From Octopus vulgaris (taxonomy: Eukaryota): a DNA stretch of 64,000 bases. This document shows, one piece after another, positions 5,157 to 35,876 of this stretch (position 1 is the stretch's first letter; every line of letters begins with the position of its first letter). Where the stretch lies: positions 135,408,001-135,472,000 of the forward strand of contig OX597814.1 in assembly GCA_951406725.2 (NCBI GenBank), written 5' to 3'. The translations under genes were made by a program, and so were the position numbers. The notes below the pieces were generated by a model. That model had not been told where the DNA came from, made no database searches, and worked only from the letters and a program-made list of their open reading frames with translations.

Positions 5157-6054
5157 TTGGGTCATCCTAAAAATAATACAGCTTTTTTAATACTTCTTTT
5201 ATTCTTCAAAAGTAAGGTAAACAAATTTCTTTTATAATCTAAAATATACTTTCCTTCATTTTCTACGATGCTTTTCCATCTCTCTGGGAGATTTGCAGAG
5301 CCCCTCTTCTAAAATTCACTTGTCCGTGATGAAAAATACTCCTCCAGTACTGTTCTGACCTCATCTACAGAATTCATATTTTTTCCACCCAAATGATTTT
5401 GAAGACTGCTAAATAAATGATAACCAGATAGAGAAATGTCTGGTAAATATGGTGGGTGGGGTATCGTTTCCCATTTAAACTGCTCCAGCCTTTGGAATGT
5501 CATCCTCACTGTATGTGGCCAAGCATTAACCTGATGGATGAACACCTTTCATCTTGAAACCAAAGATGGTCAATTTTCTTCTGGTGCTGACTTCAATGAC
5601 TGGTTGAATGACCAAGTCCAAGCTTCTCTGCTAGTTCCTCAACAGTTACAATGGGAATTTGTTCCACCAGGGTTTGCAGGACATCATCATTGAGCTCTAC
5701 AAATCTTCCAAGATGAGGCTCATCTTTTAGGCTGTAGTTTCTGGCTCAGAATTTCTGGAACTACCGTTGACACTGGCTTATGCTTATTGTTTGATCCCCA
5801 TATACTTTTATTGCTTTTATCGAACTCATAAAGCAAAATATGCTGAATACGCTCCTTTGTCACTTCCATTATAGCTTTGAAAAAATAACTGTTAAAATCG
5901 AACTGCACTCTTCAAAACTTGCACTAAGAATAAGGACATGGTAAAATTACTAACTGTTTTTATAGCAAGTCGATGCAGGTAGTTTATCCTGTCCCCTTCT
6001 GACTTTTAGTTCATGCAGTTGAAACCAAAACACATTATTTATGTGATGACCCAG
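5157..6054 (-). mobile_element. Internally deleted mariner element, same family as 1287-2194
   Basis: TIRs ttgggtcatcctaaaaataat / attatttatgtgatgacccag, flanked by TA. Translates MEVTKERIQHILLYEF and HQVNAWPH...HPPYLPDISLSGYHLFSSLQNHL, matching mariner HDNARPH / HPPYSPDLAPSDYHLF. Confidence 0.9.
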
Positions 6055-10842: not shown

Positions 10843-11045
10843 GTATTGGTATCTAGAATACCCAAAAAGTGTCAGGTAATGCTAAGTAAGTGCTATGGAC
10901 AGACTGTAGTTAAACTCTTTGTTTGATAATGATATGAGTGAAGAGTCTAATGTGAGTCTTGTATTAGCATGCATATATATATTAGATAGAGTGAGATAAT
11001 AAACTCAAAGCTGTGAGGAGTTTCCTGGACATTTATAAGGAAATA

Positions 11046-11093
11046 GTCTTACAGCTGTTTCTTGGATATTATGGATATCCCTTCATCAGACGG
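11046..11093 (-). ncRNA. Minimal type-I hammerhead ribozyme motif (PLE type, stem I damaged)
   Basis: Minus strand: ccgt CTGATGA agggatat ccata atatcc aa GAAA cagctg TA agac. Palindromic stem III (ACAGCTGT). Confidence 0.6.
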
Positions 11094-11244
11094 TGTGAGA
11101 AGGTTAAATAGTGGAAATATTTGAGTTTGAATAATTATATCTTATTTCTACGTTCATTTGCTTATTTCCCTCTGTATTCCCTATCTCCTCCTTTTCCATA
11201 ACAATTCAAACTCAAATATTTCCTCTATTTAAGCTTCTCACACC

Positions 11245-11292
11245 GTCTCTGATGAAGGCATATCCATAATATCCCAGAAACAGTTGTAAGAC
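11245..11292 (+). ncRNA. Minimal type-I hammerhead ribozyme motif (PLE type)
   Basis: gtct CTGATGA aggcatat ccata atatccca GAAA cagttg TA agac. Stem I gtct/agac; predicted cleavage after GUA at 11288. Confidence 0.7.
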
Positions 11293-11369
11293 TATTTCTT
11301 TATAAATGTCCTGGAAACTTCTTACAGCCTTGGCTTTATTATCTCATTCTGTCTAATATATATATATAT

Positions 11370-11445
<76 letters not shown>

Positions 11446-11476
11446 ATCAAAATAAAAACATGATGCGAAGGATTCA

Positions 11477-11554
11477 GCGGTACATATGTTTCGGGCCTTT
11501 ATTAGACAGATTTATAACAATGCATAATGTATGTCTGTGGCCTTCTTCAGCCGC
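11477..11554 (-). ncRNA. Type-I hammerhead ribozyme in PLE pseudo-LTR (left arm)
   Basis: Reverse complement of 16665-16742. Confidence 0.8.
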
Positions 11555-13371
11555 GCACAACAGCTTCCACAAGGACATGTGTTACATCAAAAATTCTTGG
11601 TTGGGGATGCAAATCCTCTCATTCGCGTACGACATAATGCGGCAGCAGCATAGAATTGAAGCGTCCATCTCTTTCTTCTCTCAATGTAGAATGAGGAAAT
11701 TTGGATGTTGAAGTAATGTAAATAAATAAATACATATATAGACGTGAAGATGGAGGGGCGAGAATTCAGGACAAGGGATAAAAAATGTATAAAAAGTGTA
11801 AGTATAGAAAAATATAAAAATGTAGAGCATAAAGATGTAAAGAGATATAAGGAGATGTAAAGGGGGTATAAAGAATATAAAGAAATATAAATAAATGTAA
11901 AGGCATAAGGTTATAAAGTAAAAATAGAAATAGAAATAAAAGTAAAAAGTAAAAAAATAAAGATAGGAATAAACATGATAAAAATGTAAAAAAATATAAA
12001 GATAAGGGATGTATAGAGGTTACGGACCAAACATGGTGGTCAGGAGATTGATAAAATTTAGTTGTAGAAGTTTTGGGTGTCAATAAATCAACAGTTTCGT
12101 CTGGGGACCTAATGTGTTGTAAATCAGAGCTGTTGAGCGTTTAATCTGGTTCTTTGAATTAATTGGTCATCTAGTACATACATACCATCATGGATACATA
12201 CACCCATATACACGCGTACATATACGCCTCCAAGCCTATAAGCATACACACGCACTCGCGTGTTACACACGCACTCGCGTGTAAACATGTACATAAACAC
12301 ACACACACCCACACGCACGCGCGTACATATACATACATACAACAGAATATCCGCATGTATACACGGACACTATACGTGTACACACCCATATGTACATACG
12401 TGCGCCCATCCCTACATACACATACGCATATGCCCACGCTTCCAGGTTTAGATATAAGATATTAAAGGATGTATATAAGAACGTATGTAAAGAATCACGC
12501 ACTCACGTCTACACGTGCACGCACACACGGCTGTGTGTCCATATGTGCGTGCACATATACACTTACATACACACACAGAGACATACGCGCATATGGGTAT
12601 AGCTATAAGATATTAAAAGATGTATACAAATAGGTGTAAACATATGAATATAAGAAAACATGTAAAAAAAGAAATACGGGGTATGTACATCCAGACGTAG
12701 ATGTTTACTCGTACATATGTACATATATGTATACGTATACATACGTACACGGACGCTCGTATAATCATAAGGTGGATCCATAGGTAAGTAAATAAGGGAT
12801 AAGCAAAAAAATAGACATATATAGAGATGTAAAGCGATAAGTTAGGGGTAAGAATGAGGGTAAGGGTAAAAATTAGAAATAAAAGTAAGAAATACAGTAT
12901 AAAATAAGAAATACAATGTAATAGTTAGAAATGAAATATAAAAATTATAAAAGTTAAGGTAAGGGATGAAAATAAAAATGAGAATAAATGGAAGTAGAAT
13001 AAAAGTAAAAATAACAGTCAAAATAAAAATAAAAAAAATAAGATAAAAATATAATTTGGTAAAGTTTAACATGAGATGAAGGTGGTTGAAAGTTAGAGGT
13101 GTGTGTTAAAGGTGCCCACGTAGGGGCGGGCGGGGGGGAACTGAAAATTGGAAGGGTGGGAAGTGGAGTTTGGCGGTGTGCGTTCAACATCCGAGTTAGA
13201 AATGTGAAAGGGTATAGATATAGGGAAATAAAGAGATTATATAGGAAGGATATGGGTGTAGGAGAAGAAATATGTAGGGAAAAGAAGTCATATATGGGAG
13301 ACAAAATTTGTATATATAGGAGGAAAATGCAGGGAAACATATATGCACATACACACACACACACACACACG

Positions 13372-13409
<38 letters not shown>

Positions 13410-13545
13410 CGTACACATATGTGCACATACATATATATACGCACACATATACGCATATACACGCACATATAGGAAAGCGGGATGTGCTGGAGCCGACAGG
13501 TTGCACCGGGTGGGAGGAAATTGCATGGGGGAGTTGGTATAAAAC

Positions 13546-14456
13546 CTAAGCTTTGTAGTATTTGAAAGTATTAATAAGTTTGTGTATACAGGATGGTTTG
13601 AACTCTGACCTTTTGTTAATAAGATTGTGTTTGTCTTTGAATTTCAAGATGTTCAGGAGTTCTACACAACATAGTTGGCATCCTGCTCTATTATTTAAAT
13701 AAGGTGCAGCTGATCCGATGATGGACCACCTGAGTTTGAAGCCTATGCATTTGTCTTTTAATTCCCAAATTCTTTTAGAAAGGGAGGTGCTGTTAGCCTT
13801 ATGTCTGTGTTTCAGCGAGGACCGGTGGTTGTAGTATCTGGATTTCCAGGAGGTTCAGCAACCTATGTAGGTGAGTGTGTTAAACTGGGTACTCACCTCA
13901 CATGAATATATTACGTTTTTCGCCCTACATGCGCCCTGCAGCGGGCACTCTGATGCACATCTGCAGTTGCATTGCATTGCATTATTCGGTCGTGTGCTGC
14001 TAATCCCAGGCGGAGGTGTTGCAATACGAGTGGGGGCGTTGATATCCTCCTGGTTGTTGATGAGTGTAGTATTTCCTCTGTTGTGTTGGCGGGTGTTATT
14101 ACTAACTGTTTGGGTAGTATGGCTGCCAGTCTGGTTATATTGTCTACTATCTAGGTGAGGGGGGTTCTGTTGGTCGCTATAGTTTGCTCTTGATCTAGCT
14201 GTTCTAATATTAATATAGTTATGTTTAGCTATGAGGCAGCTCATGTTGGGCAGGGTAGAGTAGGAAATCCTAATGGTTTTGTTGGAGAAGATACTTCTGT
14301 ACTTGTGGGTGGGTGGGAAGTTGTTGGAAATGATAGAGAATATTCTCTTACATAACTTACCCCTAACTGCTAAGTTGTAAGGTATGTTGAACCATATATA
14401 TTTGCGTAATCTACTATTATCCCTTCTATTTCTCCTAATAGGATCTATATTGCTCT
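13546..14456 (-). pseudogene. PLE ORF C-terminal fragment: post-RT linker, CxC Cys cluster and GIY-YIG endonuclease, with one in-frame TGA at 13855-13857
   Basis: RKYIWFNIPYNLAVRGKLCKRIFSIISNNFPPTHKYRSIFSNKTIRISYSTLPNM...CNCRCASECPLQGACRAKNVIYSCEVSTQFNTLTYIGC*TSWKSRYYNHRSS...STSLSKRIWELK...LRWSII...CQLCCVELLNI...LINKRSEFKPSCIHK...YYKA*. VIY...YIG is the GIY-YIG motif, followed by the catalytic R. The last ~69 codons are duplicated at 14457-14664 (+). Confidence 0.85.
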
Positions 14457-14800
14457 CAAATGCATAGGCTTCAAACTCAGGTGGTCCATCATCGGATCAA
14501 CTGCACCTTATTTAAATAATAGAGCAGGATGCCAACTATGTTGTGTAGAACTCCTGAACATCTTGAAATTCAAAGACAAACACAATCTTATTAACAAAAG
14601 GTCAGAGTTCAAACCATCCTGTATACACAAACTTATTAATACTTTCAAATACTACAAAGCTTAGGTTTTATACCAACTCCCCCATGCAATTTCCTCCCAC
14701 CCGGTGCAACCTGTCGGCTCCAGCACATCCCGCTTTCCTATATGTGCGTGTATATGCGTATGTGTGTGCGTATATATATGTATGTGCACATATGTGTACG

Positions 14801-14846
<46 letters not shown>

Positions 14847-16664
14847 AGTGTGTGTGTGTGTGTGTGTATGTGCATATATGTTTCCCTGCATTTTCCTCCT
14901 ATATATACAAATTTTGTCTCCCATATATGACTTCTTTTCCCTACATATTTCTTCTCCTACACCCATATCCTTCCTATATAATCTCTTTATTTCCCTATAT
15001 CTATACCCTTTCACATTTCTAACTCGGATGTTGAACGCACACCGCCAAACTCCACTTCCCACCCTTCCAATTTTCAGTTCCCCCCGCCCGCCCCTACGTG
15101 GGCACCTTTAACACACACCTCTAACTTTCAACCACCTTCATCTCATGTTAAACTTTACCAAATTATATTTTTATCTTATTTTATTTTATTTTTATTTTTA
15201 CTTTTATTTTTACTTTTATTCTACTTCCATTTATTCTCATTTTTATTTTCATCCCTTACCTTAACTTTTATAATTTTTATATTTCATTTCTAACTATTAC
15301 ATTGTATTTCTTATTTTATACTGTATTTCTTACTTTTATTTCTAATTTTTACCCTTACCCTCATTCTTACCCCTAACTTATCGCTTTACATCTCTATATA
15401 TGTCTATTTTTTTTGCTTATCCCTTATTTACTTACCTATGGATCCACCTTATGATTATACGAGCGTCCGTGTACGTATGTATACGTATACATATATGTAC
15501 ATATGTACGAGTAAACATCTACGTCTGGATGTACATACCCCGTATTTCTTTTTTTACATGTTTTCTTATATTCATATGTTTACACCTATTTGTATACATC
15601 TTTTAATATCTTATAGCTATACCCATATGCGCGTATGTCTCTGTGTGTGTATGTAAGTGTATATGTGCACGCACATATGGACACACAGCCGTGTGTGCGT
15701 GCACGTGTAGACGTGAGTGCGTGATTCTTTACATACGTTCTTATATACATCCTTTAATATCTTATATCTAAACCTGGAAGCGTGGGCATATGCGTATGTG
15801 TATGTAGGGATGGGCGCACGTATGTACATATGGGTGTGTACACGTATAGTGTCCGTGTATACATGCGGATATTCTGTTGTATGTATGTATATGTACGCGC
15901 GTGCGTGTGGGTGTGTGTGTGTTTATGTACATGTTTACACGCGAGTGTGTGTGTAACACGCGAGTGCGTGTGTATGCTTATAGGCTTGGAGGCGTATATG
16001 TACGCGTGTATATGGGTGTATGTATCCATGATGGTATGTATGTACTAGATGACCAATTAATTCAAAGAACCAGATTAAACGCTCAACAGCTCTGATTTAC
16101 AACACATTAGGTCCCCAGACGAAACTGTTGATTTATTGACACCCAAAACTTCTACAACTAAATTTTATCAATCTCCTGACCACCATGTTTGGTCCGTAAC
16201 CTCTATACATCCCTTATCTTTATATTTTTTTACATTTTTATCATGTTTATTCCTATCTTTATTTTTTTACTTTTTACTTTTATTTCTATTTCTATTTTTA
16301 CTTTATAACCTTATGCCTTTACATTTATTTATATTTCTTTATATTCTTTATACCGCCTTTACATCTCCTTATATCTCTTTACATCTTTATGCTCTACATT
16401 TTTATATTTTTCTATACTTACACTTTTTATACATTTTTTATCCCTTGTCCTGAATTCTCGCCCCTCCATCTTCACGTCTATATATGTATTTATTTATTTA
16501 CATTACTTCAACATCCAAATTTCCTCATTCTACATTGAGAGAAGAAAGAGATGGACGCTTCAATTCTATGCTGCTGCCGCATTATGTCGTACGCGAATGA
16601 GAGGATTTGCATCCCCAACCAAGAATTTTTGATGTAACACATGTCCTTGTGGAAGCTGTTGTGC

Positions 16665-16742
16665 GCGGCTGAAGAAGGCCACAGACATACATTATGCATT
16701 GTTATAAATCTGTCTAATAAAGGCCCGAAACATATGTACCGC
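16665..16742 (+). ncRNA. Type-I hammerhead ribozyme in PLE pseudo-LTR (right arm)
   Basis: gcgg CTGAAGA a ggcc [acaga...tctgt ctaataaa] ggcc c GAAA catatg TA ccgc. Stem I gcgg/ccgc, stem II ggcc/ggcc, palindromic stem III ACATATGT, predicted cleavage after A16738. Confidence 0.8.
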
Positions 16743-17207
16743 TGAATCCTTCGCATCATGTTTTTATTTTGATCAATTTACTCCACCACCTACACCACCA
16801 AACGGTATACACAGGTGCTTATAATTATCAAGTACTCACCCCGAATTTCTATATATATATATATATATCCATATATATATATCCAACCTGCAATATTTTC
16901 CTGCATCAAAACTGATCACAGCCAACAAAAACTTGCCACACCCTACACACATATACAGCCATGTGTAAAAAGCTTTACTGGTCACTGTACACCCTTTAGG
17001 TAGGGTACCCCATGATTTATATACGCAACATAAAGAAAATAGCACAACAAAAACAACAAAACTTTGTACATATTACAAAGGTCTCGTCTTCTGTCACATA
17101 GGAGGGCTATGTGTATAATATCAAATAAGTATTTATGCGTGTGCATGTGTGCATGTATGTAGGTTTGTATGTATGTTTTTGTATATATGTTTATGTATGC
17201 ATATACA

Positions 17208-18865: not shown

Positions 18866-20550
18866 TTGTGAAGACCTGTTGAGGCAGAGGCAAGTGTGTG
18901 ACACTTGTGGAGACCTGTTGAGGCAAGTGTGTGACACGTGTGACACGTGTGACACTTGTGAAGACCTGTTGAGGCAAGTGAAAATCAAAATCAAACCAAA
19001 TCAAAATAGATGAACATCAATGGAATTTGTATCTTTGTGGTTCCAGTACCGGTGGCACACAAGAAAACCATCCGAACGTGGCCGTAGCCAGTACCGCATT
19101 GACTGGCCTCCGTGCTGTGGGCACAACAAACACCATCTGATCGTGGTCGTTCGCCAGCCTCATCTGGCACCTGTGTCGGTGGCACATAAAAACACCATCC
19201 GAAGACCCGGCGACGTAGTCAGTCCACCTGTGCATACCTTCCTTCTTATGACACTTGTGAAGACCTGTTGAGGCAAGTGTGTGACACTTGTGTAGACCTG
19301 TTGAGGCAAGTGAAAATCAAAAATCAAAATAAAATCAAATCAAATCAAACCAAATCAAAATAGATGAACATCAATGGAATTTGTATCTTTGTGGTACCAG
19401 TACCGGTGGCACACAAGAAAACCATCCGAACGTGGCCGTAGCCAGTACCGCATCGACTGGCCTCTGTGATGTGGGCACATAACAAACACCATCTGATCGT
19501 GGCCGTTCGCCAGCCTCATCTGGCACCTGTGTCGGTGGCACATAAAAACACCAACCGAAGACCCGGCAAGACTAGTCAGGCCATAACCCGGGGCCCCTAC
19601 CTGGGACGTAGTCAGTCCACCTGTGCATACCTTCCTTCCTTCTTGTGACACTTGTGAAGACCTGTGAAGACCTGTTGAGGCAAGTGAAAATCAAATCAAA
19701 TCAAATCAAAATAAATCAAAATAGATGAACATCAATGGAATTTGTATCTTTGTGGTACCAGTGCCGGTGGCACACAAGAAAACCATCCGAACGTGGCCGT
19801 AGCCAGTACCGCATCGACTGGCCTCTGTGATGTGGGCACGTAACAAACACCATCCGATCGTGGCCGTTCGCCAGCCTCATCTGGCACCTGTGTCGGTGGC
19901 ACATAAAAACACCATCCGAAGACCCGGCAAGACTAGTCAGGCCATAACCCGTGGCCCCTACCTGGGACGTAGTCAGTCCACCTGTGCATACCTTCCTTCT
20001 TGTGACACTGAAGACCTGTGAAGACCTGTTGAGGCAAGTGAAAATCAAAACAAATCAAAATAGATGAACATCAATGGAATTTGTATCTTTGTGGTACCAG
20101 TACCGGTGGCACACAAGAAAACCATCCGAACGTGGCCGTAGCCAGTACCGCATCGACTGGCCTCTGTGATGTGGGCACGTAACAAACACCATCCGATCGT
20201 GGCCGTCCGCCAGCCTCATCTGGCACCTGTGTCGGTGGCACATAAAAACACCATCCGAGCGTGGCCGTCTGCCAGCCTCGTCTGGCACCTGTGTCGGTGG
20301 CACATAAAAACACCATCCGAGCGTGGCTGTTCGCCAGCCTCGTCTGGCACCTGTGTCGGTGGCACATAAAATCACCCACTACACTCTCGGAGTGGTTGGC
20401 GTTAGGAAGGGCATCCAGCTGTAGAAACACTGCCAGATCTGACTGGCCTGGTGCAGCCTTCGGGCGCCCCAGACCCCAGTTGAACCGTCCAACCCATGCT
20501 AGCATGGAAAACGGACGCTAAATGATGATGATCATGATCATGATCATGAT
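18866..20550 (+). mobile_element. Composite retroposon: four ~300-370 bp tandem units, ~61 bp subrepeats, SINE 3' end and (ATG)n tail
   Basis: The unit start gaagacctgttgaggcaagtgaaaatcaaa...tagatgaacatcaatggaatttgtatc is repeated 4 times. It ends in the common SINE tail. A second copy is inverted at 52757-54311. Confidence 0.85.
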
Positions 20551-21079
20551 CTATAAATAATTACATATTTTGCACTCCATAGTCATCTTGTCTTTATTCA
20601 GATAAAGTATATGCTTTATTACATTACCCAATATGTCCTTCCATTTCTGAAATGGTAGAGTATGATATGAAGGAAATGGTTGCTATTTCTCATAGGTGTC
20701 ATAGTCACATAGAGTCTATCTCATTGGTTTATGTATAACTAAATATTTTATTTTGTAATGATGAATTCAAATCCTAATTATAGCACACAAGTCTGTCATA
20801 ATTTAGATTTACTAAACAAAGATTTTAAAGTGCTTCAGTGACTCCATATGTTATGGAGTTCAAAAGAACAAAACTGATTTAAACTTCACTACTTAACTAT
20901 GATATTTATGATTATGATGACTAACTATGAAATCTTATGAAAATATGTTAAAGGAGAATAATATGTATTGCTCAACAGAATTTACTTATAACACATCCTT
21001 ATTTGAAATTTTGGAAGAGACTGCACATATTTTTTATTGGGAGTCTTGATAGCTCTTCTGGGTCCTTTTCTATTTCTAG

Positions 21080-21190
21080 GCCCATGTCCTGAAGACAGGA
21101 AAGGAAGTACACCTGAGGGAGATATTGATGTTGCATTTGACCGTTACTCACAGCAAATCACTGATTTAGAAAATGGTAATAATTCTTGTG
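21080..21190 (+). CDS. RPH3A: Rabphilin/DOC2-like gene, linker exon upstream of C2A
   Basis: ttttctatttctag acceptor, G|gtaagt donor, phase 1-1. Open frame PCPEDRKGSTPEGDIDVAFDRYSQQITDLENGNNSC joins in frame to 25184. No domain motif of its own. Confidence 0.75.
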
Positions 21191-22749
21191 GTAAGTCATC
21201 AAGAAAGTGTATATATAATGTCAATGCATATTCTACCTTTACACCTACAATAACAACAACAGTGAGTATAATTCTTACTTGTCCACTATCGTTATTATCA
21301 TAATAACAATAATTGACACTTATATTCACAAATTCACATTAATATTTTTCACATGATTTTTCTCTTTTGTGCTCTGAATTCATATTAAACCTACACTAAT
21401 ATGTCTTCTTTTTTTTTAATCATCAGTCTCATAGTATCTCGTGTTTTAGGATTCTATTCTAGAGCTCTCTTATAGATTTTCTTACTTCTGTTAGGAAATC
21501 TTAAAATAAAGACAAGATTAACAGAAATAGGTGCAGCATTAGAATGAGACAAACACATAGTTTATTTTTAATTGAATAATTTGGTCGTTCAACTTGAAAT
21601 CCTTCAAGCAGAAGTCCCTGATAACTTGGCTTGGGTCATTTTGCACCCAGCTGCACAGGAAGAATAAATTTTAAAATTTTCTATTTTATTGACTATCACA
21701 GTCTTCAGGGTGTTTTTGGCATTACATGTGAGTTATTTATGTAATAGTTAAGTTATACATTTTGCACTTTATTGTGTTTTGTTATGACCCCCTCATCCAT
21801 GGAAAAATGCTCTTGCATGAAACTGGTCCATAGTGCAAAAATGATTGGAGACCACTGATTTAGGGAACAGTGAGTAAGGAAACTTTTGTTTTAGTTCTCC
21901 ATATAAGAACTAGAAGTATATCTTTCAGCCATTAAATGACTCTTTGAGCTGTCATTCACACACTGAATGCTGAGATGCATTGCAACTCTATAAATTGGTT
22001 TAGCTTTGGAAATAGATTCAATTCAGTATGATTGATTGTCATTGTATACAAATATAACAACAATAATAACAAACGTAATGGAAAATAAATTATAGATCAA
22101 GTTACAATAACAACAATCTATTGTAAACCAACAACAATAACATAGAACAGCATACATTCAACATGACAGTAATTACTATATCAATATAACAACAACATAA
22201 TTATATTAGCAAATATAAGCAGAAACACTTATCTATATTCCTAATAATCCCATTTCCTATCAGTGGTAGAAAGCTTCTTGTCTAGTTCTGTTTGTGTTAA
22301 CTATTAGATTGCACAAAGATGAACATGTGTTTAGATAGTCTCTAATGTCTGAGATGAATCTGAATGCTCATTACAGAAGTAGCTAATTAACTGCTATTTG
22401 CATATACAGGTATACCAAGTGTATATTTATTTAATAACTATACATTAGGCTTTCTGTTTATTCTTGTAAATTTTCAAGTATAAATATAATATTCAATCCA
22501 GATATCTGCTTCTTCAGTTCTGTTTATTATTTATTTTATTTTATTTTGTAACTTGTGAATAATAATGTTACAATGTTACAGCTTTCCAATGAGCCAGTCT
22601 CTAGTTTTCTGCATTCCTAATGGTGAAAGACACAAGGGAACATCTGAAGATTTTTTGAAAAGCATCTGTTTTTCTCTTTTGTATTCTTCACTGGTATATG
22701 GCAGAAGATATAAACATTAATACTTATATATGTGTGAGTGTGAATGTAT

Positions 22750-22801
<52 letters not shown>

Positions 22802-24256
22802 TGTACAGACAAGGAGGTAATATTTTGAATGCTGTATGCCATAGAAACAGCAGAAAGATTGGGCATTATTACCCACATAAGGGTATTATATATATATAAT
22901 TGTTAAAGAGGACAACAAATGTTAAGGCAAGACAAACATCTCAAGTTATATACGTTATTATTATTGGAAAAATTCAAAACCTTACGGCTGTTTCTGGGAT
23001 ATCCCAGAGTATGGAATATTCCATCATCTGAGAAAAACAGGGAGAATGAAAAGGGTATAGATTAATGAAATGATGACTCAGAGGACAGGAGAAAAGGAAT
23101 AAGGAGATGAAGAAAGAGAAAAAAAAGAAGCATAAATGTTCACAGTTCAACTTTCCAATCATGTAGAAGTAAGTTTGTAAGTTCTTAAGTGCAATCCTGT
23201 GTAAATCTATGTGGATTAAAGTCTTAATGGTGTAAATATCCAGAAATAGATGCAAATGTATCAATGTTCAACTACAGAATAGTAGCAGAGGTGGTGATTA
23301 AATAGTAAAACGAAATAAAAATAAATACAAAGAGAGGTAGAGAGAATGAGGGAGGAAATTAAGGATTGGCATTAAGGATAAAATGAGGTATGTAAGAATA
23401 TAGTGTATAAGAATATAGTGTACAAAAATGACTAAGAAGATAAATAAATAAATATATATGGGTAAATAAGGAGAGAGGAGGAGATAGTAAAGGAAGATAA
23501 CATAAAAAAGTAAAATGAAAGGAATTCAAAGAGAATAGTAGGTGCCAGTAGTATTTTTCTAGTTTATAGGGGTTGGGGAGGAAATCTAGTAGTAAGTGGT
23601 TGTGTCCAACTTATGGCTAAGGTCAGTGGTTGTAGAAATATTTTCAGCAATGGGAGTATGGGTGTGTATGTAGTCATGAATGGAGAAACCAGTTGAATGC
23701 TAAATTATTTAGGAATAAGTGTTAGAATTATATATTAGGGGATTTATTCAGTTAAGGTTTAAAAACAAACAATTAACATTTATCTTTTAAAGTGATGAGG
23801 TTAGGTTGCTAGAAGAGCTAAACAGGGGTATGTGTTAGTGATCATGGAGGTTTGTATTTGAGTGTTATTCGTGGAGGGTAAATTTACATTTGGATTTATG
23901 GAAGAATTTAAAAGTGCAGAAGAATTTGTGTTTACATGCTGTGAAGGCTTTGTTGTATTTGTTAAGCAACTGGTGAGTTATGAGTTAAAATTTCGAGGGC
24001 TTCTTTTAAGTAGAGTCCACAAGTGGGGTGCTGGCCCTGATATGGGATACCAGAATCTATTAGAGCCCAGGAAAGTCTATATTATATTTTTCTATTAATT
24101 AGACGGTGTACATGGCTGGCTAGTGATGTGGAATTGCTACTCTCTTTATATATATTTATTTATTTATATATATATATGTAAAAGGGTGATAATGTCCAAT
24201 CTTTCTGCTGTTTTCATGGCTATACTGTGTTCAGAATATTACCTTCTTGTCTGTAT
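22802..24256 (-). mobile_element. Old PLE-like remnant bracketed by ~72 bp inverted repeats, with a degenerate HHR at ~22980-23033
   Basis: 22802-22873 is the reverse complement of 24184-24256. Minus strand reads tct CAGATGA tggaatattcca...gggatatccca GAAA cagccg TA agg, related to the 11046/11245 motifs. Confidence 0.5.
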
Positions 24257-25183
24257 AATACAATACACATTCAATGCTTCTAAAAACTAAATAAAAAGTT
24301 TGTTTACATATGTTGTTGATACACACACAAACACACACACACACACACATATAATAGTGATCTGTATATCATATTTAAAGCATATATACTGTTGAATGTC
24401 TTCTAAACTGTGGTTTGTGTTGAGAAAACATACCTTATAGCTGTATAATGTTAAAAATCACAGGAATATATCAGCAACAGTGCTCTGCAGTGGCGGCGTA
24501 GGTGAATCCATATTTATGGTTTCCATTACTAATAAGGAATTTTTATTCAGCCTGCCAGCTGAATGCAACATCAGTGACCATTTAATCACTGTTTAACTAT
24601 TTCTGGTTGCAACCAATTTTAGCTTAGCATGTGGTATCAGTGGTTGCTTGCCATTACAGTAACATAAACAAATCAACAGTGGTTGTTAATGCATGGTGAG
24701 GAATGCACAAAGACACACACATACAGATAACTGGTTTCCACACAATTTCCATTTATGAAAATTCACCCACAAGACATTGGTTAGCCAAGGGCTATAGTAA
24801 AAGACACTTTCCCAAGGCTCCATGCAATGGGAGTGAACCCAAAGTTGGGTGATGTCAAAAATCAAGGTTAATAGTGCTGTTTATTATGAAGTGTCAAAAA
24901 GTTTTGTCATACTTCTGTAACCTGATCAATAACACAATTCTATAGCATCTCTGTATGTGTTTAAATGGTTGCAATCACAATTGTATGATGTTATTGTTTT
25001 TTATTCCAATATCAGATCGAGTCACATGTTATTCCAGTACAATTTGGAGATCTTTATAAGTGATTATCTGTCTATTTTATTGACTGTCACTCCAATACTT
25101 TATCAATATCCCATACATATTATGTAGAGAGACTAACATCAATATATTGCATTTCACAGTAAGACATTACTTATTCATTGCAG

Positions 25184-25263
25184 AGATGCTGGGTATTCTA
25201 GAATTTTCTCTACTCTATGATGCTGATAATAATGCTCTGAACTGCACTGTGGTTAGAGGAAAG
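25184..25263 (+). CDS. RPH3A: Rabphilin/DOC2-like, C2A exon 1
   Basis: cag| (E)[26 protein letters not shown] |gtaagt; matches rabphilin [25 protein letters not shown]. Confidence 0.95.
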
Positions 25264-25494
25264 GTAAGTACTGAATGATTTTTCACACATTATTTTAAAA
25301 CTCTTCACATAAAGAATGGAGCTTATTCAAATAACGAAGTGAGTCTTTAGAACTGGTTGACTAATTGTAGTTTATGTTAGCATGAAATGGGGTGGAAATA
25401 TTAAAAGATGTTTTGTTTGTATGCCATGAAATGAACACCAGCCTAAATAGTTTGGATAATGCATCATATTTTAAATAAATGTGTGTGTATGTGT

Positions 25495-25700
25495 GAATAT
25501 ATAGACCACAAATATATAGGAGGTATGAGAGGTGAATATATTCATTTAATCACTTGATATCCATGGGATTACTGCTGTTTCACAGCCTTCATCATGTAAT
25601 AACAATTTAAGTGTATAATAAATTATTTTACATGCCTGCACCAATATGCATGCTACACATTGCACAGTACTATTGTATATTTACAAATCAAAGCAGATAT
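25495..25700 (-). mobile_element. Decayed dispersed repeat (PLE pLTR-like), homologous to ~61740-61930
   Basis: Shared ggtatgaga-tgaatatatt...ttgatatcc-at-ggat...cagcc--catcat...agtgtataat-aattattttacatg. The minus strand has an eroded HHR-like TGATGA...GAAAcagcagTA. Confidence 0.45.
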
Positions 25701-26649
25701 AGAGGGCAATAATATCATAGTTATACCATTCCTACAACTCAAGATGCCTATACAAAATTATCCTTTGTATACACAATGTATGGAAGACCAGTAGTTGATA
25801 AAATAAGATTGGTATGGTCATTAAAAAATACATATAAATAATAAATATATTTGTATGTTATTAATTAAGATGCTGGATCTAGATTTAGGGAACTGACTAT
25901 TCTTAATATAAACAAAAGACAGGAGAGGGATATAAGAAGCCAAGTACTTTAGATTAAATAAAAAAAATATTTTGAGAGTGTTTAAAATTACATGTAAAAA
26001 ACAAAATAAAATATAATATACATAAATTCAGTAAATCCAGTAGGGAACAGACAGCTGGAAATATAAAAATTAAACCAAGGGATAGTTTTCAACAACAGTT
26101 ACTTTCAATTATGATTAAAAGGTCAAACGGCTTTCAAATGCATTCTGTCTCAATAAACTATATTGAAGTCAACACACCATAGCTAAGGGTAGATCTTATA
26201 AGCATTTACATACTAAAAAAAAAGTAATAATAATAAAAATAAAATCTGCACAAAAACACCCACATAGTTGTATATTCATATTCCTATTAATGTACATACA
26301 TACCACACAGAGACAAACATTAGTACATGCACAAACATGTATACATATAAGTTATAAGCATATATAACCAAATGCATACAGAAGAACATACGCACAATAT
26401 AAAAATATACACCTGCACAGTGTAAAAAATATGCACATACGAAAAATGTACGAATAGTAATATAGAAACATATACATATAAGCGTGCATGCATGCACACA
26501 CATTACTGTGTGTGTGAGTGTGCATAGATACACTCTCAAATTGATAACACCTTTATAGGCATGTTCAACTGCACAAACACCCATAGACACAATATATATG
26601 TACATACGTATACAGAGACATACATATATATATATATATACTCAATATT

Positions 26650-26790
26650 TATCCAATAGAAGATCCATTTTTCATCACCAGTCACAAATCTATCCATAAA
26701 GGGTAAAATGAATTCGTGAGAATGGAGAGAAAAGCAGATGTCAACTTGGGACTTGCAGTTGTTTTCGGACAATTCATGAAGCACCCACGT
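26650..26790 (-). mobile_element. Mariner transposase fragment
   Basis: WVLHELSENN...PFMDRFVTGDEKWIFY (mariner WVPHEL and TGDEKW motifs). Confidence 0.8.
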
Positions 26791-27122
26791 GAAGAGAAAT
26801 ACTGATGATAGTGGAAAAGGAACCCACACTCATATACACATAAACTCAAATGTGCTCCCATTTGAAATTACTTATGAAAACAAGCTCCTCATCAAAATTC
26901 TCTGTCCATCACAATTTTCTTGATCTTAACTATAAATCTTGAAAGGTTTTAACCTTTCAAGATCTCTAGTTAAGCCTATAACCTGAAAGAACTAAATTTA
27001 GATTGTACTGGTTTATATAATTCATAAATTCTTTCCACATTGTAAAATTGATATTGTTTCTTGTATTGATCTAAATAACTAGTGACAAAGAAATGTATAT
27101 ATATTCTATATTTGTACTTTAG

Positions 27123-27197
27123 AACCTAAAAGCGATGGATATGAATGGATTCTCTGATCCGTATGTTAAACTACATCTACTTCCCGGTGCTTCCAAA
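27123..27197 (+). CDS. RPH3A: Rabphilin/DOC2-like, C2A exon 2
   Basis: tag| NLKAMDMNGFSDPYVKLHLLPGASK |gtgagt; the DPYVKLHLLPGASK signature of rabphilin/DOC2 C2A. Confidence 0.97.
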
Positions 27198-27929
27198 GTG
27201 AGTCTGTAACAATTTGTGCTTTACATATCTTCATAGATCTAAATAATAACAATTCTTTATTTTTATAAACATATGATTTAATATCAAACATTATGGGTTT
27301 TAATTTAATTTTCTTTTCTTTAACAATGTACTTTAATCCACCAACTAACTGCCTCTTGACCAGCTTCCTACCTACTTTATTTAAGAAGCACACATTTCAG
27401 TTCTTTAAGGACAATGTATTTGAACCAAAGTCAAGAAGTTCTGTTGTAAAATGTTGATTAGACAACAATGTTTGATCATTCTAAAATATGTTAGATTTCA
27501 AGTTTACAAACTTATGTCTGTTTGGTGAAGTTGATTGAGACTAAATAATTTTTTTATGTCATTTTAAATCTATACTAAATCCTGATATTTTCTCATTTGA
27601 TCTGGTGGGTGGGGGAGAATTTAAAATAAAAGCGAAAATAGGAGCCTTTATTCTTAAACTTTAAGTGCTGCTGTTACAGGTTCTAAATTCTAAATCTTTT
27701 GTAATAGAAAGGAAAGCTGAGCCTATAAGAAAGGCAATAATAGTAAACTGAAGATTGTTTTGATGGCAGAAAGTTGGCATAATTAATAGAGTACTAAACA
27801 AAATGACTTAGTTTTCTTTCTTCAGTATTCCTCATTCAAATCCTATTTGAGTTGACTTTACTTTTCGTACATCAGAGGTCATTGAAATTAATATCAGTAA
27901 TATTCAGGGAGAAATTTACTTGATTATAA

Positions 27930-28109
<180 letters not shown>

Positions 28110-28335
28110 TAATTTGGTAATTTACTAATACATCTGAAGTTATATTGTTTCATAGGTAACTATTCATAGATAACTACACCTGTTAATTTGCTGCTGCTTG
28201 AGTCCTTATATACTTTGGTTTATGTGTGTATATGTTTATGTTTTATATGTTTATATTTTATAAAAATGTTTATGTCTTATAAGTATGTTTATGTTTTATG
28301 AGTACATTTATATTCATTGTCATCTGTTTGTCCAG

Positions 28336-28459
28336 GCTGTCTGTACTTGATGAGGACCCCATTGGCTATGATTTCATTGGAGAATATCGAATATCATTAA
28401 GCCAGTTAAAAAGAAATCAAACTAAACGCTTTTCTGTCTTGTTAGAAGATCATCAACCT
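28336..28459 (+). CDS. RPH3A: Rabphilin/DOC2-like, C2A exon 4
   Basis: cag| LSVLDEDPIGYDFIGEYRISLSQLKRNQTKRFSVLLEDHQP |gtaaga; Ca2+-binding DED...D loop. Confidence 0.95.
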
Positions 28460-29065
28460 GTAAGAAAAGTTTATCAAAATTATTCAATATTTTCATGAAA
28501 TCAGTTTTATGAATCATTTTGTTCCTATGTATTTGTGCATAGTATGATTTTATTACTACAGATACAACATTGATTTTCCAGAACCTTTTTCTAAACCACA
28601 TGTGGTTGCCTTGGTCATCACAGTCTAAACACATTTTAAATTGACTTAAATAATTAGATGAAATACAGATGTCTGTACATTAGTATAAATGATACAAGTT
28701 TATTAATACTGTACTGTGCAAGATAACAGTAAACTAGTCTGGCAACCACGGGAGTTTGAAATTCCTGCTTGTAAATTAATTTGGCTTATAAGAGGTTCCA
28801 AAGCATCAGTGTCTGGAAAGTAGGTGTTGTACTTGTAGCACTGTTGCATCATTGGACACTGAATCCTTGAATTTATTTGAGCTACATTTCAAGCAATAGA
28901 ATTTATTAATTTCCTCAAAAGCATCATTTAACAGTGATGAGATATTGCAATGTTAAAACATGTTTTCCTTTATCCTTTATTCTTTTACTGGTTTCAGTTA
29001 TTAAACTGTGAGAATGTTGGGACATCACTTTCAAAGTGTTCTTAGTTGATGATATTGACTACTAT

Positions 29066-29545
29066 TTATATTAGTCAGACTGATGTTCTCATCTTAATCG
29101 TTGCTTTCTTTACATTTCAGCTGTTGTATGCTCCATTTTTCTTCATGGGTCTTGTGTTGAACTGATTATTGTATTGGAATTTTGAACCTAACCCTCTATT
29201 TGATCCCATGGGAGTACACTGTTCTCATTCTGCTCTCCATGTTTTCTGACATTTTTTGGCTTCAGTTGATTTTTGTGAATTCATGTTAGTGCCTTGCCTG
29301 GGATTGAACTCAGAAACTTTAAGTGACTGCACTACATAGAGGTTCTGAGCTCAATCCCAGTCAAATGTAATTCACAAAAATCAGCTGAAGTAAAAAATGT
29401 CACGAAATGCAGAGTGGGTTAGGTTTGAAATTCTTATACAACAACCAAGTTCAACACAAGGCGCCTGAAGTAGGCAGGAGCATAGAACAGCTGAAATTTA
29501 GTGAAAGCAACAATCCAGGTGAGGACACTGGTCTGACTAATATAA
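29066..29545. mobile_element. Old fold-back of inverted PLE pseudo-LTR fragments with degenerate HHR motifs
   Basis: tatattagtcagac...gaacctaaccctct...tgggattgaactcagaa pairs with ttctgagctcaatccca...ggttaggtt...gtctgactaatata. At 29462-29503: cgc CTGAAGT aggcagg...cagct GAAA ttTA gtg. Confidence 0.6.
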
Positions 29546-29832
29546 ACAGTATACATAATATAAATTCCTCATCTCAGAAATGTAGAATTGTGTGCACATT
29601 GATGTAAATATGTATGTATAATTTTGCATACTGAAATTAATAATACCACAAGAAGTTTTCCAAAACAGCTCTAATCATGGGAGTCATAAAGAAAAAAATA
29701 AATCTGTATTCTTCTCTCATACCTCCTGACTTTATACTATGTATGTATGTATGTATGTATGTATGTATGTATGTGTGTATGTGTGCATGCGTTTGTGTGT
29801 AAGTATGTGTGTGTATGTCTGTATGTTTGTAT

Positions 29833-29877
<45 letters not shown>

Positions 29878-29919
29878 TGTGCATGTGATGTGTGTGTATA
29901 TATATATATATATATATAC

Positions 29920-31245
29920 TCCAGTTCGATTCCTCCACTTTGCACATTTTCCCCAACCTACCCATCCCCTCTTTCAAATGAGTCCACAACCTACGTGACC
30001 TCCTGGTCTACAGTTTTTTCCTAGCCCCACCTTCCAGCCCGGCTCATTCCCCTGCTCCTGCCCATGCTGCTGCACTTTCCCCTCCCTCTCCAACACCACC
30101 ATTCTCACAGGCACCCATCATCATTCCTATCATATTACTGACTCCTTCACCTGCACTTCTAGCAACTTCATTTACTGCATCTCCTGCTGTTTCTGTCCTT
30201 CTCTGTACATTGATCTAATGGGACGCCATTTGGCTGACTGGTTTGCAGAACATCTCCAAGACATCGGACTCAGCAACGACAGCCCGGTCTCATGCCATTT
30301 CCACTCTACCACTCATTCATTACAACACCTATCTGTGTTTGGATTGTCTTTGCACAGGGGCCATCCAGATTCCCACCTTCGCTGTGAACAGGAATTAATC
30401 TTCTCTCTTCACTCCTTTGCACCACATGGGCTCAACTCCCCTCTCCTCTTCATGTGATTCCCCCCTCTCTCCTCTCATCCTCTCACACCCACTTCCTCTC
30501 TTCACTCCCACCCACCTCTACTCTCCTCTCTTGTCCTGACACCTACTTCCTTTCTTCACTCTAACCCACCTTCTGCCTTCCACCCTCTCCTTTCATTGTT
30601 ACCCCCTCCATCCACACCCCACCCCACCCCTACACATCCCAATCCCACCATCCCTATATATCCCAATCCTACCCCTACATCACCCCCACACATCCCACTC
30701 CTACATACCCCACCACACACCACCACAACACAACACACCACACATCACCGCACCTCATCACACCTCACCACCACACCACATCGCACCACCCTGCACACAC
30801 TAGCATTGACCACCTCCGAGCACCCACACCACACCATATCACACCACCTTCCACACACTAGCACTGACCACTTCTCAGCACCCACATCATCATCCACATA
30901 CCTACACATGCACACACCCACACGTCAAGGTTACCTGCCCCAATCCACGTGCACACAGTTACACACTCACATACACATGCACGCGCACCTTCGTTTTGGG
31001 ATCACCACTATTTTATTATCTCCCCTTCTTCCTAGCTCTCCTGTCTGACCACCTCTGTCCAGCCATCATCATGATTGACTGCTAGCTCCAAAAGTTTTTT
31101 TTATTCTCTCTGTTTATTTTCTCGTGTTCCTTTCTGTTGAAGAGCGTAGACTCAAAATGTAAAAGACTTTCTCACCTTCCCGAGTGTTAAACTAATACAC
31201 TTGTTGTTTATACACCTGTCTTCATCTTTTATTTTTTTGTAAAAA
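29920..31245 (+). mobile_element. Penelope-like element 3' fragment (Neptune-like Cys-rich linker, GIY-YIG endonuclease, pseudo-LTR)
   Basis: PGSFPCSCPCCCTFP...ITDSFTCTSSNFIYCISCCFCPSLYIDLMGRHLADWFAEHLQDI...PVSCHF...EQELIFSLHSFAPHGLN, stop at 30457. Followed by a low-complexity UTR and an HHR-like motif at 31130-31165. Confidence 0.85.
31130..31165 (+). ncRNA. Degenerate minimal hammerhead motif (CUGUUGA core variant)
   Basis: cttt CTGTTGA a gag cgtaga ctc AAAA tg TA aaag. Stem I cttt/aaag; GAAACG appears decayed to AAAATG. Confidence 0.5.
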
Positions 31246-31702
31246 GATGTTTTATTTATATATTGTTTAAAAGTGAATTGTTGTATGTTTGATTGTTGAT
31301 GAAATTAATTTAATATTTGTATCAGTGATACATATTAATAATAGATAATTATTGATATGATATATCTGTGAAGCTTCACTAAGCTTACTACTGGTTACAA
31401 TCTTGCTTCAATGTTAGCTGCGTTATCAGTGCCAAAAAAAAAATGAATATTTTAAAGAAGGCTTTGATTCAAACTTTTCAGTTATTGTTAATGAGTATTG
31501 GAAGCAGGTTAATTATCTCTTTATTAGTTTCATGATGATATGAAAGCATTTCTTCCAATTTATATAATTTTTCAGCAATTTTGGTTTATAGTCCTTTAGT
31601 TGTAAGCAATACTTCTTTCACTGATCTAATAATAATAAAATAAATTGAATCAAACAAAGTTATGTGTTCTTTTAAATTTCCTTTAATTTATAATAATTCT
31701 AG

Positions 31703-31858
<156 letters not shown>

Positions 31859-31898
31859 TAAGTTTTTATTACTATTTATCCTCATCTTGTTTGTTGTT

Positions 31899-31944
31899 AA
31901 CACAACGTTTCGGCTGATATACCCTCCAGCTTTCATCAGGTGTC
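31899..31944 (-). ncRNA. Minimal type-I hammerhead ribozyme motif
   Basis: Minus strand: gacac CTGATGA aagctg gagggtatat cagcc GAAA cg TT gtgtt. Stem I gacac/gtgtt, palindromic AACGTT stem III. Confidence 0.75.
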
Positions 31945-32015
31945 TTGGGGAATTTTCGAACCTGTTATTGTTATTGTTGTTGTTGTTATTATTATTATTA
32001 TCATTATTATTGTTG

Positions 32016-32070
<55 letters not shown>

Positions 32071-32106
32071 CATCATCATCATCATCATCATTATTATTAT
32101 TATTAG

Positions 32107-32152
<46 letters not shown>

Positions 32153-32342
32153 GGTGGTAAGCTGGCAGATTTATTACCATGCCAGGCAAAATGCTTAGCA
32201 GCATTTCATCCGTCTTTACTTTCTGAGTTCAAATTCCATCGAGGTCAACTTTGCCTTTCATACTTTTGGTGTTGATAAAATAAGTGCCATTATTTACATT
32301 ATTTACATTTTATGGATATTTGTCCACATCTTGTTTGTTGTT

Positions 32343-32388
32343 AACACAACGTTTAGGCTGATATACCCTCCAGCCTTCATCAGATGTC
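32343..32388 (-). ncRNA. Second tandem copy of the hammerhead motif (G12 mutated)
   Basis: Minus strand: gacat CTGATGA a ggctg gagggtatat cagcc TAAA cg TT gtgtt. Confidence 0.6.
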
Positions 32389-32449
32389 TTGGGGAAATTT
32401 CGAACCTGGGTTCTCATCCCTAAGGTATTTTTCAATGTTGTTGTTATTA

Positions 32450-32498
<49 letters not shown>

Positions 32499-33563
32499 CA
32501 TTATTACTATTATTCAGGTCACTGCCTGGAATTAAACTCAGAATCTTGGGGCTAGTAGCCTGCACTTTTAACCACTATGCCATATGCCCATGGGCAATTA
32601 TGGAGTGAATTTTTAGGGCTTAAATATTTAATATTTTCCTATCCTTCCTTAATACCGGTTCCCATATGCAATTCATATCTGCACTCGGTGCTGCTTCTTT
32701 TAGTTTTCATATTTTCTAGTGGTGTTCTCTGTCTATTATTTTAACTTCATCACACAGGGGGAGGTGGTCTCCATTTTTCCATACATGATCAGCTATACCT
32801 AATCTATCAATATCTTCTCGTGTCAGAGCTTTGCGATGTTCCTCTACTCTTATTTTGAGGGGGCGGCATGTTTCACCTTTGTATAACCTACCACAGCTGC
32901 ATGGGATGGAGTACATGCAGTTTTTGGTCATATTCTCTTCTATTGGTGGTTTTACCCGAAGGAGATATTTGCGAAGCATTATATTTCCTTTGGGTAAAAC
33001 CACCAATAGAAGAGAATGTAAATAATGTAAATAATGTACATAATTCCTTATCTCTTAAATATAGAATAATGAATTATATAATTTAGATAAAATTTGTAAA
33101 CATACTTGCTGATTCATTTCACACTCACTGTTGACATTGTTTTGTTTTCCTTCTCCTACCAGAAGTCCTTTTTCTGCTGATCAACTTCCTAGCTAGCCTG
33201 TTGCGAAGTTTCTGTCTACAGTTCGTCTGTCACAAATCCTACCCTACAATGCCACTGATGTTTTCCAAGAGAAAGGCAAAGGCCGATACAGCTTGACACC
33301 AGTGATGTCGCAACTCATTTCTCCAGCTGAGTGAACTGGAGCAACGTGAAATAAAGTGTCTTAATTAAAATCATATCACACAACCTGGTCCAGGAATTGA
33401 ACTCACAACTTCATGATTGCAAACCCGATACTGTAACCAATGAGCCATGTGCTTTACAATAAATGATTATGAATGAGTTAATAAGTGGTTGATAACAGTT
33501 TATTGTACTTCTGTTTTGTTTTTGTTTTTTGTTTTTTGTTATTTTTCTTAATATTTCCTTCAG

Positions 33564-33645
33564 ATATTTGAAACCTGATCCAGGCAAGAAATCAAAATTT
33601 AAAACAGAAACTAAGAGAAAAACACTGAATCCTGAATATAATGAA
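33564..33645 (+). CDS. RPH3A: Rabphilin/DOC2-like, C2B exon 2
   Basis: ttccttcag| YLKPDPGKKSKFKTETKRKTLNPEYNE |gttagt; polybasic beta4 strand. Confidence 0.97.
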
Positions 33646-34089
33646 GTTAGTATAAATTCATATTTCAAATCCTTTTATTTTCTTTTACTTGTTTCAGTCC
33701 TGTGACTATGGGGAAATAGAAAAAGAAACCGCAACTTATAAGTTACCCTGATTAGAGCTAAATAATTAAAACAGTTAAAAGAATAAAAGAAAATAATAAA
33801 GTGTGTATTGTCAGTGAATAACTACAATATATCTCAGGTAATTTATTTTATTAACACTGGGAGAATGAATGGAAAAAAATCAACCTAAGTTGGATTTTGA
33901 GTTTGGAAAGTAGAGAGAGGAAACTGAATATTATAATTCATTTTAGACTGGTGTTTCTAGCAAATTATTACTCGTGATTTTCAGGTAAAATAAATCGAAG
34001 CTTTTGTATTTGAAAATGGGCCTTTCAATTTGTTTTTGTTCAACAATGTTACTTTACCCTTATAACATCTGAATCTATTTTATTTGCAG

Positions 34090-34186
34090 ATATTTAATTA
34101 TAATATCCGATATAATGAACTCACACATAAGACATTGGAGATAACTGTGTGGGACAAAGATATTGGCAAACCTAATGATTTCATTG
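34090..34186 (+). CDS. RPH3A: Rabphilin/DOC2-like, C2B exon 3
   Basis: cag| IFNYNIRYNELTHKTLEITVWDKDIGKPNDFI(G) |gtaaat; Ca2+-binding WDxD...D loop. Confidence 0.97.
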
Positions 34187-35754: not shown

Positions 35755-35876
35755 GAGGACTTGAATTTGGAAGTCAATCCAAAGGTGACAAATTACAACA
35801 CTGGTATGAAATGTTAAGAAATCCTGACCAGAAAGTTGAATATTGGCATACTCTAACTCCAGATTTTTGTCCATGA
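35755..35876 (+). CDS. RPH3A: Rabphilin/DOC2-like, last coding exon
   Basis: cag| GLEFGSQSKGDKLQHWYEMLRNPDQKVEYWHTLTPDFCP* (TGA at 35874-35876); matches rabphilin [25 protein letters not shown]. Confidence 0.97.

Follow-up and report, generated by a model that had tools for sequence, protein, structure and literature searches.

We analyzed a stretch of 64,000 nucleotides of Octopus vulgaris DNA (GenBank assembly GCA_951406725.2, contig OX597814.1, positions 135,408,001 to 135,472,000 of the forward strand), referred to below as the window, in which a mirror-image stretch of about 5.4 kb occupies an intron of a rabphilin/DOC2-type gene. This stretch consists of two 5'-truncated copies of one Penelope-like element (PLE) of the Hydra type, joined head to head and no longer able to make protein. 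We consider it probable that this dead insertion entered a TA repeat when both target strands were cut and two cDNAs were made from one RNA source, starting at two fixed internal points. The parts of the insertion are as follows, in window coordinates.

11355..11441, no strand: left (TA)n target, which holds a TCC-interrupted motif also present to the right of the element
11442..13753, - strand: left arm, with the last ~68 codons of the open reading frame (ORF) and the entire 2.1-kb 3' untranslated region (UTR); it stops at the 'short' terminus of the family and abuts (TA)n
13754..14456, - strand: spacer, the single-copy portion of the longer 5'-truncated copy (unit positions ~1753-2455), with the linker between reverse transcriptase (RT) and endonuclease, the CxCx5C motif and the front half of the GIY-YIG endonuclease
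14457..16777, + strand: right arm, a shorter 5'-truncated copy in the opposite orientation, beginning at unit position 2456
16778..16850, + strand: tail of ~73 nt on this side only, 66% A+C, with the same sequence as the beginning of the element leader
16851..16885, no strand: right (TA)n target, which carries the same TCC-interrupted motif as the left target

In a local alignment, the left arm and the reverse complement of the right arm share 2,306 matches and differ by seven internal substitutions, four indels (1, 1, 1 and 8 nt) and one edge mismatch in the flanking TA; the spacer between them measures 703 nt. An initial annotation of the window had described near-identical inverted arms with a few real differences and had noted that PLEs favour microsatellites, and this description holds: the differences are found at 13710/14500, at 11864/16355 and in microsatellite lengths, and the flanks on both sides are TA-rich. 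The extent given there, 11442..16777, is too short, because the tail of the family at the right end was overlooked. The last 4 nt of the tail region (to 16853) overlap the TA target. The right arm joins the longer copy at 14457 with 1 nt of microhomology, and no TA lies between the two arms where the copies meet. The TCC-interrupted TA motif on both sides of the element is a candidate target duplication of ~25 nt, and the flanks are not mirrored.

The element belongs to a large family. A 32-mer near the element end has 581 exact matches in the genome and a 33-mer of the tail has 562, with none for the reversed controls. The endonuclease region yielded 249 genome candidates, and the 40 of these 249 that were scored are all 98-100% identical over 897 nt. 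We defined the full unit from locus L028, a partial tandem, as 4,758 nt: a 152-nt leader, a frame of 836 codons and a 3' UTR of 2,095 nt. The single 836-aa ORF combines RT with a C-terminal GIY-YIG endonuclease. Its start-codon region was found 17 times in 15 loci, and the ORF is uninterrupted in five of these 15. Direct pseudo-long terminal repeats (pLTRs) ahead of full-length copies measure about 5 to 2,150 nt; therefore, what had been taken for a non-coding pLTR of ~2.1 kb is the 3' UTR of the family, not a fixed pLTR. Among the 20 best-matching copies, nine have an inverted arm of at least 100 nt, and arms of other copies reach 2.4 and 3.3 kb. The second arm in the window is an ordinary 5'-truncated second copy, a structure common in the family.

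Evidence on how such structures form comes first from their ends. Of the 581 listed ends, the first 100 include 50 that make up 25 divergent pairs, the window included, and in every pair one end is short (-6 to +12) and the other is long (+74 to +84, +161 in one case). Nine further two-ended insertions comprise eight with one short and one long end and one with two short ends, so that the arrangement holds in 33 of 34 insertions (p=4e-9 against a coin toss). Left out of this count were duplicates (L027, L036), incomplete ends (L030, L113) and one locus whose inverted arm is the tail alone (L096). There are thus two end points, ~73 nt apart, one for each end of an insertion. By manual reading of the end listing, the tail sits on the longer arm in eight of the 25 pairs and on the shorter arm in 13; four are too close to call.

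The second line of evidence is the ancestry of the arms. Where arms are at least 600 nt long, the nearest sequence of each arm is its partner in all 13 insertions. The window arms differ by 0.31% (next copy, 0.53%; median, 2.9%) and have in common two letters that no other sampled copy shows. Family-wide, 65 insertion-private variants are common to both arms, compared with 61 confined to one. At the sequence level, these comparisons establish a shared ancestry of the arms within an insertion. Neither window arm is a plain copy of the other, because the short arm has the tail and the long arm has the spacer. At one arm difference, 13448, both letters segregate in the family (10 and 10); this position lies in a simple repeat and was not taken as a sign of two templates.

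The insertion-private variants, drawn from 55 loci, also show a strand bias: in element sense, T>C changes outnumber A>G changes (122 versus 63, p=1e-5), and T>C accounts for 20 of the 65 both-arm variants versus eight of the 61 one-arm variants (Fisher p=0.02). The T>C changes in this set show no clusters and no ADAR neighbour preference, and no hyper-edited copies fixed in DNA were found among 147 segments from 56 loci. The excess likely reflects an error bias of the RT.

On the preferred reading, the insertion likely proceeded as follows. A full-length copy would supply the protein, together with an RNA that runs past the hammerhead ribozyme motif into the leader. The RT-endonuclease would cut both target strands, and each cut strand would prime reverse transcription, one at the short and the other at the long start point. 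Both cDNAs would stop early and independently, at this locus after ~3.0 and ~2.4 kb, and their free ends would then be end-joined, here with the 1 nt of microhomology. In vitro, a PLE protein cuts and extends both target strands and initiates reverse transcription internally, at two sites corresponding to the bounds of the genomic tail; it is predicted to be a dimer (PMC11167929). Afterwards, the arms would have drifted apart for roughly 0.4 million years (Myr). With a rate of 0.0036 substitutions per site per Myr, derived from the equivalence of a Jukes-Cantor distance of 0.09 with 25 Myr (PMC13282606), and assuming no conversion, the arms are about 0.42 Myr old (0.17-0.87).

Several points weigh against this reading. 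The pairs were chosen by an exact 32-mer on two contigs, so the sample is biased to young copies. Two-armed insertion is not obligatory, since 11 of the 20 best-matching copies have no inverted arm of at least 100 nt. L122, the exception to the end rule, has two short ends; it may not be independent, because its junction is common to L124. Two junctions have long overlaps, one of 26 nt that is palindromic (L088) and one of 11 nt (L081), which fit self-priming better. Gene conversion between arms could also explain their similarity, and would make the estimated age too young. Finally, a single RNA molecule and a pair of RNAs from the same locus are indistinguishable as the source. As a separate observation, L122 and L124 lie on different contigs, have the same internal junction and differ in having the tail; they are possibly one duplicated or re-mobilised insertion.

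The alternative that survives best, although we regard it as unlikely, retains the same element and derives the palindrome from one nascent cDNA, perhaps copied from an antisense template, that primed itself or switched templates, with the endonuclease resolving the product and leaving the tail on one side. Self-priming was proposed in PMC3846280, and the tail has been ascribed to endonuclease-mediated resolution (PMC8557442). A single template would account for the identity of the arms, the palindromic junction of L088 fits, and the excess of T>C over A>G could come from an edited antisense template. However, apart from four that are unresolvable, most junctions, including that of the window, are non-palindromic and show overlaps of 0-6 nt or short fillers, and the tail sits on either arm. 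The lack of clustering and of ADAR neighbour preference speaks against an edited template, and RT mispairing would be a simpler source of the bias.

A different kind of proposal concerns why the palindrome is there, and it depends on the host gene. One exon in the window is 98% identical to a 616-aa O. vulgaris DOC2/rabphilin-type protein with FYVE_2 and C2 domains. Sixteen coding exons of this gene were located on the + strand, seven to the left of the window and nine within it. Genome searches with Pfam FYVE_2 and C2 missed its short exons, which a protein search found.

21079..21189, + strand: next host exon, amino acids 299-335 of the rabphilin/DOC2-type protein (P0121)
21079-35873, + strand: nine coding exons of the rabphilin/DOC2-type gene, with C2A and C2B domains, from the protein search

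The preceding coding exon ends ~7.9 kb to the left of the window, and the intron between measures ~29 kb. Because exons map on both sides and the intron has GT and AG at its borders, the intronic position, which the initial annotation had given as probable, is confirmed; the upstream rabphilin exons expected to the left of the window are the seven located there. If the intron is transcribed, a stem of ~2.3 kb would be expected in the host pre-mRNA.

It is therefore conceivable that the palindrome is retained because this intronic double-stranded RNA of ~2.3 kb regulates rabphilin by way of editing, splicing or small RNAs. The element lies in an intron that would be transcribed in the sense of the gene, and the arms, with 907 and 591 adenosines on the + strand, are 99.7% complementary. 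We nevertheless regard such a role as very improbable: the insertion is very young and one of many genome-wide, no sign of selection was seen, and the nearest coding exons lie about 4.2 kb downstream and 19 kb upstream. Most likely, the stem is a neutral by-product removed with the intron.

Less probable still is an artefact of assembly or read fold-back, which the initial annotation had already doubted. No junction-spanning contig piece was found among the 32 of 1,020 displayed, from four public runs, a result that is not informative. Contigs from four of 24 runs over 13760-14730 reflect a very deep repeat family with loose ends at 14457, and they neither prove nor exclude the junction. Against an artefact stand the substitutions and indels that separate the arms, the asymmetric tail that matches the leader, the unmirrored flanks, and the 24 comparable structures found within the first 100 listed ends. 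Two independent insertions placed back to back in one TA repeat would suit an abundant family that targets (TA)n, but this explanation is close to refuted, given that each arm has the other as its nearest neighbour, that two letters of the pair recur in no other sampled copy, that no TA separates the arms at their meeting point, and that their ends follow the short/long rule.

Returning to twin priming by the element's own protein, we tentatively extend the preferred reading to the family as a whole, with somewhat less than even confidence. The family may be an oversized, probably still active Hydra-type element in which twin priming by an RT-endonuclease dimer is obligate, with one cDNA for each fixed site and target strand and with RNA from a single source. 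With its 2.1-kb 3' UTR, it would keep seeding near-perfect, kilobase-long hairpins in introns of octopus genes, in this case rabphilin, that are ready substrates for ADAR, and a 238-nt derivative at locus L114 would represent a minimal cis element. This miniature (L114:5086-5839) is inserted as tandem and inverted copies in (TA)n and shows the same short and long ends. It begins 5 nt ahead of the predicted hammerhead cut, extends 44 nt into the ORF and has no ribozyme core, and it is a candidate for such a minimal element. The locus L095, considered as a capture of host DNA between pLTRs, was ruled out, as it is a local duplication that includes the flanks.

All protein motifs quoted in the initial annotation are found on the - strand, where the final part of the ORF runs through the spacer and the left arm. 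The spacer had been said to carry the endonuclease. It does contain the linker and the front half: WFNIPY at 14394, CxCx5C at 13971 (CNCRCASEC), NVIY...YIG at 13917-13858 and RYYNH at 13839. The C-terminal 68 amino acids (CQLC, NKRSE, CIH) fall in the arms and hence are present twice. A TGA at 13855-13857 interrupts the endonuclease frame, at a place that reads TCA in all 13 other pattern matches. A selenocysteine reading, as in some Naiads, was rejected because the TGA is private to the window copy. On this reading of its frame, the 5'-truncated window copy is dead and unable to make protein.

For the family protein, an AlphaFold model of the endonuclease, based on 87 sequences, has a pLDDT of 89.6, and a fold search with it returned I-TevI as the best match (Z 8.9, root-mean-square deviation 2.4, 90 aligned), followed by T4 EndoII and UvrC. 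The RT motifs align with those of homologues, and the protein has two low-complexity inserts. Of 7,991 database entries scored, 1,810 are relatives at E<=1e-20, the best at 31-41% identity. A Pfam search with four proteins gave no significant match, and a profile search of PDB sequences with the protein gave 0 matches.

Each arm carries an identical type I hammerhead motif, 39 nt inside its outer end, recognized by pattern and manual pairing.

16663..16746, + strand: type I hammerhead motif in the sense orientation of the host pre-mRNA, with CUGAAGA at 16669 and GAAA at 16727
11473..11556, - strand: the identical motif in the left arm, in antisense orientation relative to the host pre-mRNA

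The motif has a 4-bp stem I, a 51-nt stem/loop II and a 2-bp stem III with a palindromic loop. The predicted GUA cut of the + strand copy falls after 16738. Genome matches to the motif are identical in 54 of 76 cases, some at overlapping loci. A scan of the window against Rfam found no hammerhead at E<=0.1 and gave only miRNA and snoRNA matches driven by microsatellites. The paired structure evaluates at -10.9 kcal/mol and is not the minimum free energy (MFE) fold, and MFE folds of the hammerhead and tail are no better than those of shuffled sequences (best z -1.63). With a calculated -160 kcal/mol for the arm duplex versus -11 for the hammerhead fold, masking of the sense ribozyme by the duplex is thermodynamically plausible. 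Hammerheads with a 2-bp stem III and a palindromic loop have been reported to need dimers (PMC4209133). Because the motif is of this dimer-dependent type and the pre-mRNA contains only one sense copy, the sense hammerhead is probably inactive with or without masking.

Some further structures touch on these motifs. In the tandem RNA of L028, a perfect 9-bp stem between tail and leader (L028:4802-4892) encloses the long end point; it is present in both the MFE and the centroid fold, with a z of -1.63 for the whole region. The 3' UTR of the family contains an internal repeat, 70% alike, and at window positions 16086-16132 it holds a hammerhead-like relic (CUGAUUU...GAAAC) with a 6-bp closing stem and an incomplete core. 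Directly to the left of the insertion, at 10978-11360, lies an older and unrelated palindrome of ~340 bp, the arms of which are 89% alike and each contain a hammerhead-like core (CUGAUGA...GAAA); the TA repeat that flanks this palindrome is where the new element inserted.

Other repeats in the window include two mutually inverted tandem arrays of a ~350-bp unit (18982-20543 and 52757-54322), 94-99% alike and separated by 33 kb, of which the first shares the rabphilin intron with the element. That intron also holds an inverted pair at 1548-1975 and 5379-5806 (428 nt, 86%) that looks mariner-derived by translation. Another inverted pair lies at 49758-49994 and 50686-50922 (237 nt, 95%). At 43696-43905 on the - strand, another Hydra-like family has left a decayed piece of its endonuclease (44% identical over 69 aa), and a further decayed copy lies ~26 kb to the right of the window.

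By itself, this locus is just another dead transposon copy. The family has modest value for studying how PLEs insert: its intact ORFs, sharp end points 73 nt apart, long arms that trace the template, and miniature derivative make the origin of PLE inverted structures directly testable. In the literature searched, there is no biochemistry for the Hydra clade. Octopuses belong to an animal group known for heavy RNA editing, and the family supplies dated, kilobase-long intronic hairpins usable for allele-specific tests of editing.

The family shows the features of endonuclease-containing PLEs: a single ORF for RT and GIY-YIG endonuclease, partial tandems with pLTRs, a hammerhead motif in the terminal repeat, an inverted 5'-truncated copy and a one-sided tail. 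Membership in Naiad/Chlamys was ruled out, as the endonuclease is C-terminal rather than N-terminal. A non-LTR retrozyme was likewise ruled out, as the window feature is a fragment of a coding element without a tandem. The Hydra clade has been defined by DKT, RWK, CxCx5C, lack of CCHH, CxxC/CxH, a canonical hammerhead and (TA)n targets (PMC8557442). DKT in place of DKG is found here as ADKTGN, and the 120 best homologues have ADK[T/S] in 113 cases and ADKG in none. CNCRCASEC, CQLCCVE, NKRSE and CIH are present, CCHH is absent, and in 87 aligned sequences the corresponding cysteines, E, N and H do not vary. The N-terminal place of RWK reads RRIRWAAY, in which RW is retained and K is replaced by A; RW[KR] occurs in 101 of the 120 best homologues. 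TA-rich flanks border both sides in all 24 two-armed insertions displayed. By eye, the RT blocks read LYRDD, FDVAMG and ITIKDHK, as in Hydra-1_Obim of Octopus bimaculoides and unlike Penelope/Poseidon (YVDD, GSP, PKIHK). Placed in this way, by motifs and a reading of the published alignment, the family appears to be a young Hydra-type PLE, as the initial annotation had suggested from the likeness of its motifs.

Within the Hydra clade as described in PMC8557442, the family has in common the single RT-endonuclease ORF, DKT, the CxCx5C linker without CCHH, CxxC and CxH around the catalytic E/N, YRDD, a canonical hammerhead near the 3' end and (TA)n targets; an inverted 5'-truncated copy, as here, is noted there for Penelope-13_HM. 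It differs in its 2.1-kb 3' UTR, in an 836-aa ORF with two low-complexity inserts, in RWA for RWK, in the 51-nt stem/loop II, and in size. Hydra elements are given as 'generally short (<3 kb)' in the same source, in which the 27 listed families measure 1,080-3,045 nt and Hydra-1_Obim measures 2,507 nt (Craig et al. 2021, PMC8557442). The unit of 4,758 nt is 1.6 times the longest published there, and the hammerhead of Hydra-1_Obim is another one; therefore, the octopus family, judged on these sequences, is different from Hydra-1_Obim and larger, and it stretches the size range of Hydra elements. At ~73 nt, the tail is longer than the 30-40 nt reported for PLEs.

PAc/Poseidon of Anolis (Frangieh et al. 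2024, PMC11167929) and Pen2a_Av of Adineta (Arkhipova et al. 2013, PMC3846280) belong to other PLE clades. As described in those reports, they share with the octopus family two end points that bound an AC-rich tail downstream of the hammerhead, a head-to-head inverted copy, a tail on one end only and AT-rich targets. The hammerhead and tail of PAc overlap the ORF start, whereas both lie upstream of the ATG in the octopus family, the arms of which are kilobases long as compared with ~0.2 kb in these two systems. The animal non-LTR retrozymes also have a type I hammerhead, and an origin from PLE pLTRs has been proposed for them; they are short non-coding tandem units with one hammerhead each, whereas the window feature is a piece of a coding element that is autonomous (Li, Clavereau and Pollet 2026, bioRxiv 10.64898/2026.07.22.740005). 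In O. vulgaris, 31 recently active Penelope-like families are reported (PMC13282606). Neither this family nor a strict pairing of a short with a long end is described in the literature searched; the family may be contained in the O. vulgaris repeat library behind PMC13282606. Inverted 5'-truncated copies joined head to head, one-sided tails, hammerheads and TA targeting are already published for PLEs, and Hydra elements are known from octopus. What is new is the size of the unit, the pairing of one short with one long end in 33 of 34 insertions, and the finding that, in all 13 insertions with arms of at least 600 nt, each arm is the nearest relative of its partner.

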